This document shows positions 1,576 to 5,522 of a DNA stretch of 9,880 nt, piece after piece. Source of the stretch: a virus (lineage: Duplodnaviria > Heunggongvirae > Uroviricota > Caudoviricetes). Numbering within the stretch: the first letter of the stretch is position 1; each line of letters starts with the position of its first letter. The DNA lies in IMG/VR virus record IMGVR_UViG_2740892274_000003; one strand, 5' to 3'. The position numbers and the translations under genes were made by a program. The notes under the pieces were generated by a model. The model was not told the DNA's origin. It did no database searches and saw only the letters and a program-made list of their open reading frames with translations.

Positions 1576-1829
1576 ACAACCAGACAATGACTTTTACCTC
1601 TGAACAATTGCGTAAACACGCGCAGGAAATGTTGCGACAGGCGGAACAACTGGAAAAAACAGGTGTAACAAAAGATGCCATTCGTCGGGATATGGTGCCA
1701 GCGCTCAGGGAACTGATGCAGGCGAAACATCGCGCACAAAAAGCGGTGGATGAGCTCGTTGATTGTGTGGCAGAGCTGGAAACCAAAGTTGGAAAGTTTG
1801 AAAAAATGGTGCAGGAGGTGCTGCGCTGA
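1572..1829 (+). CDS. hypothetical small protein (85 aa, predicted helical), nin-region-like position
   Basis: ORF sits exactly between the helicase stop (1573-1575) and the rusA start (1829). Its stop overlaps the rusA ATG (TGATG). Start is either TTG 1572 (GGAG about 9 nt upstream) or ATG 1584. No recognisable family by eye. Confidence 0.5.
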   Translation: MNNQTMTFTSEQLRKHAQEMLRQAEQLEKTGVTKDAIRRDMVPALRELMQAKHRAQKAVDELVDCVAELETKVGKFEKMVQEVLR

Positions 1830-2200
1830 TGCGCCATGAGTTTATTTTACCTTATCCGCCGACGGTGAATACTTACTGGCGACGTCGTGGCAGCACATAT
1901 TTTGTATCAAAAGTTGGTGAGCGTTATCGCCGTGATGTGACGCTAATTGTTCGCCAGCAGCGGCTGAAATTAAACCTGTCCGGAAGGCTGGCGATAAAGA
2001 TTATTGCAGAGCCACCGGATAAGCGCCGTCGTGACCTGGACAATATCCTGAAAGCACCACTGGATGCGCTGACGCATGCCGGACTACTCATAGACGACGA
2101 GCAGTTTGATGAAATCAATATTGTGCGCGGTCAGCTCGTTCCTGGTGGGCGACTGGGCGTGAAGATTTATGAAATCACAGGTGATAACGATGGCGCGTGA
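1829..2200 (+). CDS. rusA: RusA-family Holliday junction resolvase
   Basis: 123 aa. N-terminal [11 protein letters not shown] and the central [29 protein letters not shown] match the RusA acidic catalytic motif as I recall it. Position between replication genes and Q is typical. Confidence 0.85.
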
Positions 2201-2580: not shown

Positions 2581-2610
2581 TTGACCAGACACATTGTCCG
2601 GGGCTATATT
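2581..2610 (+). promoter_or_regulatory. candidate sigma70 late promoter (PR'-like): TTGACC-18-TATATT
   Basis: -35 TTGACC at 2581-2586 and -10 TATATT at 2605-2610, starting 5 nt after the Q stop. A small hairpin (CGCCAG/CTGGCG, 2618-2635) lies in the initial transcribed region. Confidence 0.35.
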
Positions 2611-2671
2611 CCTCACGCGCCAGCAAAATCTGGCGTCGGGATTGGAACCCCGGATAGAGACCGCGACAGAC

Positions 2672-2693
2672 ACACGCCGCGAGCGTGTTTTTT
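2672..2693 (+). terminator. candidate intrinsic terminator (tR'-like)
   Basis: Stem ACACGC (2672-2677) / GCGTGT (2683-2688), 5-nt loop, followed by TTTTT(A)TT at 2689-2696. Confidence 0.4.
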
Positions 2694-2821
2694 ATTGTCG
2701 TATGCACGCGCACATCTGAATTATGGTGGGGCGCATGGGGGAGCTGAAAAGCTCGCCGGTCGGTTTCCCGGTAGTTCCAACCCTGTGCGTCTCACCACCC
2801 GATGATTGGAACCTGACGGTG

Positions 2822-2850
2822 TTGACAGTTTCAGGTTTGCAGTTTACATT
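2822..2850 (+). promoter_or_regulatory. alternative candidate sigma70 promoter: TTGACA-17-TACATT
   Basis: Consensus -35 TTGACA at 2822-2827, 17-nt spacer, -10 TACATT at 2845-2850 with the key T, A and final T positions conserved. Could be the true PR' or a promoter for the downstream cargo gene. Confidence 0.3.
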
Positions 2851-2885
2851 TCCCCGCGGTGCTCAAAACACCTCGAAAGCGGTAT

Positions 2886-2913
2886 CCACACCCGATAGCC
2901 ATGTGGTTTTTTT
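2886..2913 (+). terminator. weak terminator-like hairpin plus T7 tract
   Basis: CCACA (2886-2890) / TGTGG (2902-2906) with an 11-nt loop, followed by TTTTTTT at 2907-2913. Confidence 0.25.
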
Positions 2914-3056
2914 GTGTCCAGAATTCTTGGTTTATGACCGGGTGTGCGGCTAATACAATACCAGCAATGGAAATACGCCCGCCGACTTTCGACGGTTTTG
3001 AGCGCCCGGTCACCCTCTCAAAAGGGGTAAATCAAAATATTCGAAAGGACATGTCT

Positions 3057-3620
3057 ATGAATCGCACGTCTATTGAAAAACTCCCGTCACTTACGCATAA
3101 CCATCTTCCTGTCATGACAACAGAGCTGCTGGCTGATTTGTACGGAACAGAGCGCCAGCGTTTGACAAACAATTTCAATCGAAACAAAGAACGGTTTATA
3201 GAAGGTAAACATTTTTTCCTGATAGAAGGTGATGCGTTACGAGAGTTGAAGAACGAAAACTCTTTAAGAGTTTCTGTGAAAATTGCCCGTAACGTTCGCT
3301 CCCTCATCCTCTGGACAGAACGTGGCGCAGCCCGTCACGCCAAAATGCTCGAAACCGATCAGGCGTGGGAAGTGTTCGAAAAACTGGAAGACTGTTATTT
3401 CAACCAGAAACAGCCACCAGCGGCACAAAACACATCTATCGAAAATGATGGATGCGCATTACTGAGCCACTTCGATAAACACGGTCAGGTTGAGTTCACG
3501 GAAAAGGTACCCGCCGATGCGATGGTATGTACTCTGGAACGGTTTAAATTTTATCTGGAGCAACACGGGTGGATCGTTGCCCGTAAAGAGCAACTGGTGG
3601 AGCGGTTGATGCGGTTTTAA
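3057..3620 (+). CDS. ORF6N-domain (KilA-N-related, predicted DNA-binding) protein with an unassigned C-terminal domain; late-region cargo
   Basis: N-terminal region LPVMTTELLADLYGTERQRLTNNFNRNKERFIEGKHFFL ... ILWTERGAARHAKML fits the ORF6N pattern (LYG..RLN..RN.ERF...F.L...WTE.GA) as I recall it. ATG 3057 has AAGGA 8 nt upstream; ATG 3051 is an alternative. The longer GTG-2859 ORF has an implausible N-terminal extension. The C-terminal 70 aa are not recognisable. Confidence 0.7.
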   Translation: MNRTSIEKLPSLTHNHLPVMTTELLADLYGTERQRLTNNFNRNKERFIEGKHFFLIEGDALRELKNENSLRVSVKIARNVRSLILWTERGAARHAKMLETDQAWEVFEKLEDCYFNQKQPPAAQNTSIENDGCALLSHFDKHGQVEFTEKVPADAMVCTLERFKFYLEQHGWIVARKEQLVERLMRF

Positions 3621-3696
3621 AAATTTTTTCCGAAAACTTTACGATCGTAAAAAGTTGAATATCCTGTTAAGAGTGGTTACTACGCCACACAGCTTA

Positions 3697-3721
3697 AACC
3701 CGCCGATGAGCGGGTTTTTTT
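3697..3721 (+). terminator. rho-independent terminator after the ORF6N gene
   Basis: Stem AACCCGC (3697-3703) / GCGGGTT (3710-3716), loop CGATGA, then a T-run through 3721. Confidence 0.6.
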
Positions 3722-3771
3722 ATACCTGAAAAACGGCACAGGACGTTAAACGTGCTGGTGGTCAGATGAGT

Positions 3772-3800
3772 TTGCAGATGTGATGACATATGGTTATTAT
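3772..3800 (+). promoter_or_regulatory. candidate promoter for the tRNA cluster: TTGCAG-17-TATTAT
   Basis: -35 TTGCAG at 3772-3777 and -10 TATTAT at 3795-3800; predicted start about 3 nt before the first tRNA at 3810. Confidence 0.35.
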
Positions 3801-3809
3801 TCTGCCTCC

Positions 3810-3886
3810 GGCCCTTTAGCTCAGTTGGTCAGAGCGAGCGACTCATAATCGCCAGGTCGCTGGTTCAAGTCCAGCAAGGGCCACCA
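3810..3886 (+). tRNA. tRNA with anticodon CAT, most like tRNA-Ile2 (ileX/ileZ type); automated tools would likely label it Met
   Basis: Cloverleaf traced by hand: acceptor GGCCCTT/AAGGGCC, anticodon loop CTCATAA, T-loop TTCAAGT, discriminator A, encoded CCA. Anticodon stem-loop GCGACTCATAATCGC resembles E. coli ileX from memory. Confidence 0.85.
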
Positions 3887-3887
3887 A

Positions 3888-3964
3888 CCACCACTAGCTC
3901 ATCCGGATAGAGCATCAACCTTCTAAGTTGACGGTGCGAGGTTCGAGTCCTCGGTGGTGGGCCA
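3888..3964 (+). tRNA. tRNA-Arg (anticodon TCT, reads AGA)
   Basis: Acceptor CCACCAC/GTGGTGG (unusual C1-G72), anticodon arm TCAAC-CTTCTAA-GTTGA, T-arm CGAGG-TTCGAGT-CCTCG, discriminator G, encoded CCA. Confidence 0.8.
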
Positions 3965-3966
3965 GC

Positions 3967-4042
<76 letters not shown>

Positions 4043-4045
4043 TAT

Positions 4046-4120
<75 letters not shown>

Positions 4121-4733
4121 GCGAGATTTGAGACGAAGGTTGTTATTTGCACTGACACAATATTGTGTGGGAATGTCTGACTCCTTACCATCTCCTGTTC
4201 TGTGATGTTGTTTTGTTGCAGTTCCAGTGCTCTTTTTTCAGCACCAGAATGGTGCATTGTCGGTCAGGTTACGTAGTGAACCTCTGGCAGGGGACTGATG
4301 ATTCATCATTCTGGTGTTGTAAATATCTCTTCGGACAACTTACAAAATATTCTAAGCAAACCCCGGGAACACACTCTTAACTGCCTTGGCTGGCGGTTTT
4401 TTGTACAGTGCTCGGTATGTGTGAGCTGGAAATCAGATTTTGCATGGACTGGAATCATGCTGTTATTTAGGGGCGAAGAACTGGCTTTTTCTTCCGCCTT
4501 CTCACCAGTAACGATTAGAAAAATAATGAAATGCCCCCCTCCGGGGAGGAGGACCGTAGAAAAAAGGACCCGCCAGCAAAAACATTGGGGATGAACAGCT
4601 TTCGCTACTCAGATTGCTGGCGGGTAAAGTTCCTCATGAATTAAGAATGCTACGCGATCTTTTTTAATGGAAATGAAAATTATTGTCAATTAGTCGTGCG
4701 TGTTTTTTCATACAATATTGGTAAAGGTGATTC

Positions 4734-4768
4734 AGGCCATCAGAGTTTTGCTGATGGCCTTTTTTCTT
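4734..4768 (+). terminator. strong rho-independent terminator immediately upstream of the holin
   Basis: Perfect stem AGGCCATCAG (4734-4743) / CTGATGGCCT (4751-4760), 7-nt loop, then TTTTT(C)TTT. Confidence 0.65.
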
Positions 4769-4800
4769 TCCGATAGCACAGGTCTGTCGGGGGGCGGGAT

Positions 4801-5016
4801 ATGTATCAGATGGAAAAAATATCAACAGGCATTGCCTACGGCACCTCCGCCGGCAGTGCCGGCTACTGGTTTTTGCAGTGGTTGGATCAGGTCAGTCCAT
4901 CACAGTGGGCTGCGATTGGTGTGCTGGGAAGTCTGCTTCTGGGGCTTCTGACTTATCTGACAAATCTGTATTTCAAAATAAGAGAAGACAAGCGTAAGGC
5001 TGCGAGAGGTGAATAA
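4801..5016 (+). CDS. S: class II holin (phage 21 S21-type pinholin), dual-start motif
   Basis: 71 aa; [66 protein letters not shown] matches the S21 pinholin from memory. Two in-frame starts (M1, M4). Stop overlaps the endolysin ATG (TAATG). Confidence 0.9.
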
Positions 5017-5171
5017 TGTCGCCATCATTACGCAAGGCTGTTGCAGCTGCTATTGGTGGTGGGGCTGTTGCTATAGCATCTGTGTTAATCACTGGCCCAG
5101 GTGGTAACGATGGTCTGGAAGGTGTCAGCTACATACCATACAAAGATATCATTGGTGTATGGACTGTATGT
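5016..5171 (+). CDS. R: SAR endolysin (phage 21 R21-type lysozyme), 5' part only; remainder lost in the N run
   Basis: N-terminal 52 aa: Gly/Ala-rich SAR membrane segment ([18 protein letters not shown]) followed by [23 protein letters not shown], which carries the E-D-T catalytic triad spacing known for R21. The sequence runs into N at 5172. Confidence 0.8.
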
Positions 5172-5522
5172 NNNNNNNNNNNNNNNNNNNNNNNNNNNNN
5201 NNNNNNNNNNNNNNNNNNNNNNNNNNNNNNNNNNNNNNNNNNNNNNNNNNNNNNNNNNNNNNNNNNNNNNNNNNNNNNNNNNNNNNNNNNNNNNNNNNNN
5301 NNNNNNNNNNNNNNNNNNNNNNNNNNNNNNNNNNNNNNNNNNNNNNNNNNNNNNNNNNNNNNNNNNNNNNNNNNNNNNNNNNNNNNNNNNNNNNNNNNNN
5401 NNNNNNNNNNNNNNNNNNNNNNNNNNNNNNNNNNNNNNNNNNNNNNNNNNNNNNNNNNNNNNNNNNNNNNNNNNNNNNNNNNNNNNNNNNNNNNNNNNNN
5501 NNNNNNNNNNNNNNNNNNNNNN
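5172..5522. other. assembly gap / masked region (351 N)
   Basis: Continuous run of n. Removes the 3' two-thirds of the endolysin and the 5' parts of Rz and Rz1. Every six-frame ORF crossing it is an artefact. Confidence 0.99.

Follow-up and report, generated by a model that had tools for sequence, protein, structure and literature searches.

The 9,880-nucleotide stretch of IMG/VR virus record IMGVR_UViG_2740892274_000003 (hereafter the window) comes from a lambdoid prophage, of which it spans the region of late regulation and lysis, arranged as Q, tRNAs, the interval studied here (4121-4733) and holin, with more lysis and terminase genes behind. We conclude that this interval is probably the moron site of the prophage devoid of cargo, occupied by two conserved non-coding modules that are joined at 4405-4418. 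Module A (4121-4404) is a structured RNA family, with strong support for its structure, which is constrained at the RNA level on the plus strand and obligatorily linked to tRNA-Gly. Module B (4419-4766) carries a plus-strand terminator just ahead of the holin gene, and its anatomy gives moderate support to a small RNA (sRNA) of about 95 nt encoded on the minus strand.

The interval lies downstream of Q, at a site that in related prophages holds cargo such as TerB/DUF3927, IraM or a SASA esterase, in agreement with the original prediction, which had placed it where Stx-type phages carry toxin genes. That prediction treated the interval as one feature, either a decayed cargo site or a source of non-coding RNA, and homology searches show it instead to be the junction of two modules: homologues of Module A run into other sequence after its terminator (T1), and homology to the other haplotypes of Module B begins beyond the join. 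Of 5,426 complete E. coli genomes, only 9 contain the whole 613-bp interval (at 99.2-99.8% identity); it is devoid of any annotation in them, and no deposited phage record matches all of it at high identity. The left boundary named earlier, tRNA-Gly(UCC), was recovered at 4046-4120 by both ARAGORN and Rfam. The predicted richness in secondary structure is likewise real, with 8 terminator-like sites in 3600-5100 versus 1.5 +/- 1.3 in shuffled sequences. The non-coding RNA alternative gained strong support for 4121-4404, from covariation and strand-specific G·U pairs, and moderate support, from anatomy, for 4419-4766, so that the earlier interpretation is partly supported overall.

No open reading frame (ORF) of the interval is conserved. 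The open frames, which include one of 98 aa (4298-4594) and one of 71 aa (4165-4380), gave no significant match in Pfam or PHROGs, and the 98-aa frame crosses both T1 and the module junction. A nucleotide search against prophage genomes, the check proposed with the original prediction, found homologous loci in which PGAP annotates hypothetical proteins of 79, 86 and 63 aa; these were rejected as genes because their frames break between homologous loci and they belong to no family. The best candidate peptide among them, the 63-aa frame, is open in the haplotype of E. coli IHE3034, and in the window its ATG is missing and a stop interrupts it after 27 codons. A search of 5.8 billion proteins gave only 7 hits to it at E <= 0.01 (the named ones from E. 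coli/Shigella). The frame passes through the terminator ahead of the holin (T2) and differs between haplotypes by about 7 non-synonymous versus 2 synonymous substitutions by our own count from the alignment. Inside a further frame, of 37 aa, the length of a C tract varies (5-7 C). A conserved coding gene was found neither by frame and length nor by homologues and family, and the earlier statement that 4121-4733 contains no credible protein gene holds.

The evidence for Module A comes from an alignment of 19 clusters at 93% identity, from which RNAalifold derived a consensus of 51 pairs. Paired cells amount to 96.6%, compared with 52.7% or less when partners are slid, and 11 pairs changed on both sides. 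None of 500 shuffles reached the observed values on four of five measures, pairing and covariation included; on the fifth, the count of further pair types, Module A did not exceed these shuffles. Covariation was thus above the controls in the covariance check that had been suggested. The paired positions hold 182 G·U cells versus 13 A·C cells and, therefore, the RNA is read from the plus strand; pairing falls from 96.6% on this strand to about 79% on the other, and the minimum free energy of the window copy is -82.8 kcal/mol on the plus strand versus -64.1 on the minus strand, an advantage of 18.7. Rfam 15 has no family that matches Module A, even when the threshold is relaxed to E <= 10 for 4100-4810.

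The second distinctive property of Module A is its company. In 119 of the 122 instances with enough flanking sequence, tRNA-Gly(UCC) ends 126-143 nt before the core motif of the module (GAATGG), and this linkage holds whatever tRNAs stand upstream (Thr-Gly alone, Met-Arg-Thr-Gly, Met-Lys-Thr-Gly and others). Sequences about 70% identical to Module A follow tRNA-Gly in many lambdoid prophages, including the LT-IIb phage SerU; its core pattern was found at 117 IMG/VR loci, and a common variant is present in 387 of the 5,426 complete E. coli genomes (~7%), at up to five places per genome. Strains with the module include CFSAN029787, Shigella flexneri SFBU1023 and, in the form of a variant, E. coli W. 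The promoter of the tRNA operon ends about 9 nt before the first tRNA (a tRNA-Ile in the PGAP nomenclature), and both of its hexamers are recognisable at the same place in 5 of 6 other aligned loci, the upstream genes differing. Because the promoter directly precedes the first tRNA while the upstream genes change, the tRNAs and Module A of methylase-adjacent loci, the window included, look like an autonomous promoter-to-terminator unit; in the window, this unit is bracketed by the methylase-gene terminator upstream and by T1 at its end. As a separate observation, the tRNA arrays found upstream of Module A (119 loci) share Thr(UGU)-Gly(UCC) as a constant core. Their second position holds either Arg(UCU) or Lys(UUU), and in one case Phe, an alternation that could stem from codon supplementation or from evasion of anticodon nucleases.

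Two parts of Module A outside the core would matter for any function of the RNA. The single-stranded spacer after the encoded CCA of tRNA-Gly is the presumed endonucleolytic processing site, and the largely unpaired tail is a candidate seed or chaperone-binding region. The 16 distinct tails that we aligned, collected by a match to GGCGG plus a T-run, measure 86-99 nt and differ in length by non-multiples of 3; in every tail so collected the T1 stem (ACYGCC/GGCGG) and U-run are conserved, and the loops vary. The window and roughly half of the clusters have the window-type tail and T1. The remaining clusters, devoid of both, carry another 3' extension, which is conserved and about 130 nt long (…GAGGCG..CCTCAG…GGGAGGCACCCGACGCCTC…), which looks highly structured.

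Module B is conserved in islands (4422-4470, 4552-4625, 4662-4690 and 4722-4750) among its four haplotypes, and these islands coincide with a predicted -35 element, a terminator hairpin and T2. The hairpin suggests a minus-strand sRNA: the T-run after its stem and its apical helix are found on the minus strand only, in all four haplotypes, and the region 4525-4655 folds at -49.7 kcal/mol (z -4.19) on the minus strand versus -40.9 kcal/mol (z -2.03) on the plus strand. Because of its long loop this terminator fell outside the terminator scan and was identified in folds. The TTGACA of the putative promoter is invariant in the four haplotypes and the promoter region is itself a conserved island. 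The predicted plus- and minus-strand terminators of the two modules would face each other at 4404 and 4560. The first island does not fold better than shuffles (z +0.16 on plus, -1.39 on minus), and 3' of it, in 4472-4541, variable sites rise to 13 per 20 nt. The second hairpin reaches -15.5 kcal/mol on the minus strand versus -9.2 on the plus strand in the window, a preference that is inconsistent in other haplotypes, and the poly-C tract within it (4533-4539) ranges from 5 to 7 C among otherwise near-identical copies, which suggests slipped-strand variation. That Module A pairs with the candidate sRNA of Module B was also considered and rejected, as such pairing was not better than shuffles in RNAduplex, which is a poor test on long inputs.

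Only four haplotypes of Module B were found: that of the window, the IHE3034-type prophage, the CFT073-type copy and the ColV-plasmid copy. Sequences 85-87% identical to it are present in about 1,450 of 5,426 complete E. coli genomes (~27%), on chromosomes and on plasmids, of which 574 carry it, some from Klebsiella and Salmonella; besides CFT073 and IHE3034, the strain ATCC 25922 is a carrier. The search for more distant relatives in IMG/VR, GTDB species genomes and metagenomes returned minor variants of the same four haplotypes; a scan of one genome per GTDB species placed the module in Escherichia and Shigella only, and the remaining matches of these scans, in GC-rich genomes, were due to chance. 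IHE3034 has, in this order, methylase, STnc100 (plus strand), a PapR-like gene (minus strand), Module B, holin, YdfR, lysozyme, Rz and iss. In CFT073-type copies a C-terminal fragment of Rz follows Module B and papI of the pap island is about 2 kb away, and in the ColV-type plasmid pH2332-166 iss, a serum-resistance marker, lies about 390 bp downstream of the module. CFT073-type and plasmid copies therefore look like the IHE3034 arrangement minus the holin-to-Rz segment, and the presence of Module B in about 27% of complete E. coli genomes is due to this remnant, which adjoins iss on ColV-type plasmids and stands near pap islands. That Module B is the end of an insertion sequence, as its position after an ISL3 pseudogene in CFT073 might suggest, was rejected: no insertion sequence is found there in the prophages of the window type or IHE3034 type.

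The last element of Module B, T2, is clearly a plus-strand intrinsic terminator, since substitutions in its 5' arm are C-to-T changes that give U·G on the plus strand and one compensated pair is found in the alignment. Rfam returned only sub-threshold sRNA-like matches in this region. The original prediction had named this hairpin and T-run the holin terminator; it is real, at 4734-4766, and it precedes the holin gene and so is not the terminator of the holin itself. Most simply, T2 would keep transcription from upstream promoters out of the lysis genes until Q-modified polymerase passes it, and a very short plus-strand RNA ending at T2 is possibly made.

In the explanation that we favour, the promoter at 3771-3800 would drive the four-tRNA operon, whose trailer of about 285 nt would fold into a multi-helix RNA and stop at T1. 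Maturation of the tRNA 3' end would presumably cut the spacer after CCA and free the trailer, which may then persist as a stable trans-acting RNA (an sRNA or sponge, like the 3' external transcribed spacer (3'ETS) of leuZ) or, alternatively, serve as a processing, stability and insulation element of the operon. On the opposite strand, the short gene of Module B (promoter ~4689-4661, terminator 4625-4560) would give the ~95-nt sRNA, and this gene and Module A would be convergent. In the lysogen, T2 would shield the holin and lysis genes from read-through, and Q-modified polymerase would later override both T1 and T2. Processing of the trailer, its stability and trans action and the existence of the Module B sRNA are steps that we infer from the sequence.

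Several points weigh against this explanation. Concerning Module A, the window copy, folded as a whole, does only modestly better than shuffles (z -1.52), and a GGCAGGG 5-7 nt ahead of a conserved AUG, together with the near-invariant long helix, would also allow for a short leader ORF or a site of protein binding. Concerning Module B, four haplotypes are too few for a covariation test, the -10 element (TAAAAA) is weak, lacking the conserved final T, the promoter was not reported by the scan, and a change in the ColV haplotype produces G·U when read on the plus strand but A·C on the minus strand. Moreover, Module B may be kept next to iss by hitch-hiking that goes back to one deletion event, and this may apply to many genomes from extraintestinal pathogenic strains of E. 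coli (ExPEC) because the remnant copies look like the product of holin-to-Rz loss.

The alternative that survives best is that the interval is purely cis-acting punctuation, insulating the lysis genes from the constitutive tRNA promoter and offering sites at which the tRNA precursor and the late transcript are processed (e.g. by RNase III in the 33-bp helix), with no trans-acting product; we regard it as a serious possibility, if on balance an unlikely one. Two strong plus-strand terminators between a constitutive-looking promoter and the holin, and the strict coupling of Module A to tRNA-Gly, speak for it, as does the long, imperfect, G·U-rich helix, a typical substrate of double-strand RNases: RNase III prefers such double-stranded helices. 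However, a terminator needs about 30 nt, whereas Module A keeps some 180 nt of additional covarying structure plus a conserved unpaired tail, and the best-conserved hairpin of Module B has its T-run on the opposite strand.

A more far-reaching proposal, which we consider improbable, is that Module A is a prophage trans-acting RNA cut from the tRNA precursor and forms with Module B a mobile, RNA-only cassette. The scaffold (P1 plus the 33-bp helix) would then present the fast-evolving hairpin as an exchangeable seed, different prophages would plug different specificities into the Hfq or ProQ networks of the host, and the partner would be the convergent Module B sRNA, kept beside iss in ColV-type plasmids and near pap islands. 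The hairpin of the window (4200-4221) has an 11-nt identity to the R1 seed of GcvB at 4201-4211, which is a weak lead, as such an 11-mer arises in 6% of shuffles and is not conserved. For these reasons, and because the 11-mer lies inside a hairpin, a GcvB mimic on the plus strand was rejected; an AgvB-like anti-GcvB RNA on the minus strand of 4190-4225 was rejected too, as no terminator is found there and the fold is worse.

Less likely still is a short translated ORF or leader peptide starting at the AUG at 4298 (M-(I)-H-H-S-G-V-V-N...) behind the invariant GGCAGGG, whose product would be a micro-protein or a translation-coupled attenuator of T1. An AUG 5-7 nt behind GGCAGGG is kept in all 19 clusters, the window has lost the usual AUG (AUU) but has AUG as the preceding in-frame codon, and the frame passes through T1 in several variants. 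Yet the frames diverge after about 8-10 codons through indels of 1, 4 and 7 nt, giving lengths of 18-98 aa, changes within the first codons are matched by covariation in the opposite arm of the helix, which is what RNA pairing predicts, and no protein family matches. Finally, the decay of cargo, by which the interval would be what is left of at least one earlier moron gene, is hardly credible: protein genes do occupy the same site in related prophages, and the 63-aa frame, with its plausible-looking peptide (GDEQLSLLRLLAG...), is open in another haplotype and ATG-less and stopped in the window, but the sparse hits, substitution pattern and course through T2 of that frame, which belongs to no family, speak against it, the constraint on Module A is structural rather than coding, and both halves of the interval are modules that are intact and found again in many other prophages, with no detectable protein remnant.

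The coordinates of all features, together with those of the neighbouring elements, are collected in Table 1. Upstream, a region with four Rfam matches (2604-3019), which we take to be an RNA control region of the P1/P7 c4 type or the Gifsy-1 IsrK type, occupies the expected place of the late promoter and its early-terminated transcript, and the DNA methyltransferase gene lies between this region and the tRNAs. Downstream, 351 masked bases (N, 5172-5522) directly follow the start of the YdfR-like ORF that comes after the holin gene; by annotation, this YdfR-like gene is a truncated pseudogene in the closest genome.

Table 1. Features of the window and of related loci (positions refer to the window unless a locus is given).
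Feature	Position	Strand	Basis or remark
Module A core, conserved structured RNA domain	4147-4324	+	RNAalifold and pairing controls
P1 (GCACUG/CAGUGC)	4148-4154 with 4225-4231	+	encloses small covarying hairpins
Variable hairpin inside P1	4200-4205 with 4216-4221	+	highly variable
U-run of Module A core	4233-4238	+	
Long helix, ~33 pairs	4235-4323	+	apical part covaries
A/C-rich, largely unpaired 3' tail of Module A	4325-4378	+	CUAAGCAAA..CC.GG.AA.ACA..CUUAAC conserved
Intrinsic terminator T1 of tRNA/Module A unit	4379-4404	+	terminator scan
Spacer after encoded CCA of tRNA-Gly, single-stranded	4121-4146	+	sequence varies between homologues
tRNA array Met/Ile2(CAU), Arg(UCU), Thr(UGU), Gly(UCC)	3810-4120	+	ARAGORN and Rfam
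tRNA-operon promoter, sigma-70-type, TTGCAG - 17 nt - TATTAT	3771-3800	+	scan, 9/12 matches
Mosaic junction Module A/Module B	4405-4418		homology to IHE3034, CFT073 and ColV haplotypes begins ~4419
Conserved island with small hairpin (4442-4460)	4419-4470		2-5 variable sites per 20 nt
Second hairpin	4533-4554	-	downstream of candidate sRNA terminator; 9 pairs with U·G in window
Candidate sRNA, ~95 nt	4556-4654	-	predicted 5' end ~4654, 3' end ~4560
Candidate sRNA terminator stem	4625-4614 with 4579-4568	-	best-conserved island of Module B
Candidate sRNA apical 8-bp helix, GAAA loop	4611-4592	-	built with two G·U pairs
Candidate sRNA U6 tract	4565-4560	-	2 nt (CC) after stem
Putative sRNA promoter	4689-4661	-	TTGACA (4689-4684), 17 nt, TAAAAA (4666-4661)
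Invariant pre-terminator stretch GUAAAGGUGAUUCAGGC and intrinsic terminator T2	4722-4766	+	immediately upstream of holin
T2	stem-loop 4734-4760, U-run 4761-4766	+	scan, 10-bp GC-rich hairpin; z -3.23
Class II holin gene	4801-5016	+	annotated in 99.8% identical CFSAN029787 prophage
Q-family antiterminator	1829-2200		replicative helicase also in window
c4-a1b1	2604-2656	+	Rfam match above gathering score, downstream of Q
isrK	2617-2693	+	Rfam, 77.5 bits
C4 antisense RNA	2719-2802	+	Rfam, 71 bits
sRNA-Xcc1	2936-3019	+	Rfam, 77.4 bits
Methylase-gene intrinsic terminator	3696-3717	+	just ahead of tRNA promoter; sub-threshold Trp_leader match, 24.9 bits
Alternative 3' extension of Module A	L004 3391-3600; L062, L065, L074, L076, L077, L113, L137, L141		
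STnc100 in L013 (E. coli IHE3034)	3698-3886	+	Rfam, 114.5 bits
PapR-like gene in L013 (E. coli IHE3034)	~3990-3888	-	recognised from published PapR primers
Module B remnants	L002/L011/L012 (CFT073-type) ~5001-5344 or 4001-4344; L003 (pH2332-166) 5001-5344		

Both modules resemble known systems. The closest counterpart of Module A is 3'ETS-leuZ of the glyW-cysT-leuZ tRNA operon, reportedly found by Lalaouna et al. in 2015 to be an Hfq-bound sponge RNA. Like this RNA, whose features have been described (bioRxiv 10.1101/2021.04.25.441314), Module A lies directly after the last tRNA and runs to the intrinsic terminator of the operon, with which it would be co-transcribed, and it has an A-rich unpaired stretch ahead of that terminator. 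In contrast to 3'ETS-leuZ (~50 nt), Module A is about 285 nt long, contains a large domain of several covarying helices, is carried by prophages and is specifically coupled to tRNA-Gly(UCC).

For Module B, the comparison is with PasA and PasC of the prophages of enteropathogenic E. coli E2348/69 (PMC8550237; bioRxiv 10.64898/2026.05.13.724894), members of a group of sRNAs that adjoin the holin/lysozyme operon (bioRxiv 10.64898/2026.05.13.724894). Both lie directly upstream of the holin cassette, with an insertion sequence intervening in the PP5 prophage, and both have a TTGACA promoter; PasC is on the opposite strand according to coordinates from RNA interaction by ligation and sequencing (RIL-seq), and the strand of PasA was read from sequence. 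The Module B candidate likewise stands directly upstream of a class II holin gene, on a predicted strand opposite to the late operon, with a TTGACA -35, a long 3' terminator stem-loop (GCCAGCA in its 5' arm) followed by a U tract, and a CGAAAG motif in its loop. It differs from PasA/PasC in a much longer terminator hairpin with an internal helix and in a shorter 5' region, and a sensitive blastn of 4100-4810 against the pasA and pasC loci of E2348/69 gave no match, blastn being the method by which the family was originally defined.

The joint arrangement of the two modules recalls the convergent pairs of Hfq-bound sRNAs described for moron sites in prophages of enterohaemorrhagic and enteropathogenic E. 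coli (PMC4104026; bioRxiv 10.64898/2026.05.13.724894), and with them the anti-sRNAs AgvB and AsxR of enterohaemorrhagic E. coli prophages (PMC4104026). The interval is also at the moron site, downstream of Q and PR', its predicted terminators would define a convergent pair with a plus-strand RNA, and a variable region adjoins a conserved structured part. The RNAs differ in size from AgvB/AsxR (51-60 nt), and unlike in AgvB the GcvB-related 11-mer has the same sense as GcvB and is not antisense to it. The AgvB and AsxR models (RF02702/RF02703, as cited in bioRxiv 10.64898/2026.05.13.724894), which cover the conserved 3' part of about 42 nt, gave no match in the window at E <= 1, and in 4100-4810 there was no match to AgvB, AsxR, Esr41, STnc100 or any other Rfam family at E <= 10.

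A second convergent pair, STnc100/PasD (RF02076) and PapR (PMC4546395), stands between methylase and Module B in the IHE3034-type prophage, that is, in the slot that the tRNAs and Module A occupy in the window. STnc100 has no match in the window, while the same search finds it in IHE3034. The 3' end of the PapR-like gene of IHE3034 matches the PapR cloning primers apart from a few bases; its promoter is TTGCAA-18-TATTAT, and its 5' part differs from PapR of UTI89. The proximity of papI to Module B in CFT073 prompted us to consider Module B as PapR itself, which was rejected: the ends derived from the primers are absent from the window, the module has no 22-nt complementarity to papI, and PapR is placed outside the pap island by its paper (PMC4546395).

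A site of Stx, LT-II and other virulence cargo thus holds, when 'empty', conserved RNA-only modules. Module A is apparently outside the strains used for crosslinking and immunoprecipitation of Hfq or RIL-seq, which would explain why it was missed, and the Module B sRNA, if true, would be a widely carried accessory regulator of ExPEC, so far overlooked. Our literature search for a 3'ETS RNA from prophage tRNAs found none, and two module strings of 15-18 nt, in both orientations and in DNA and RNA spellings, did not occur in the literature searched. Structured non-tRNA RNAs at phage tRNAs have a parallel in the tRNA cluster of phage T4, a member of an unrelated phage group, where the stable RNAs 'species 1 and 2' are co-transcribed and co-processed with the tRNAs. 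Taken together, the modules are RNAs of the prophage moron site and of a tRNA trailer, and each mechanism proposed here has a precedent.

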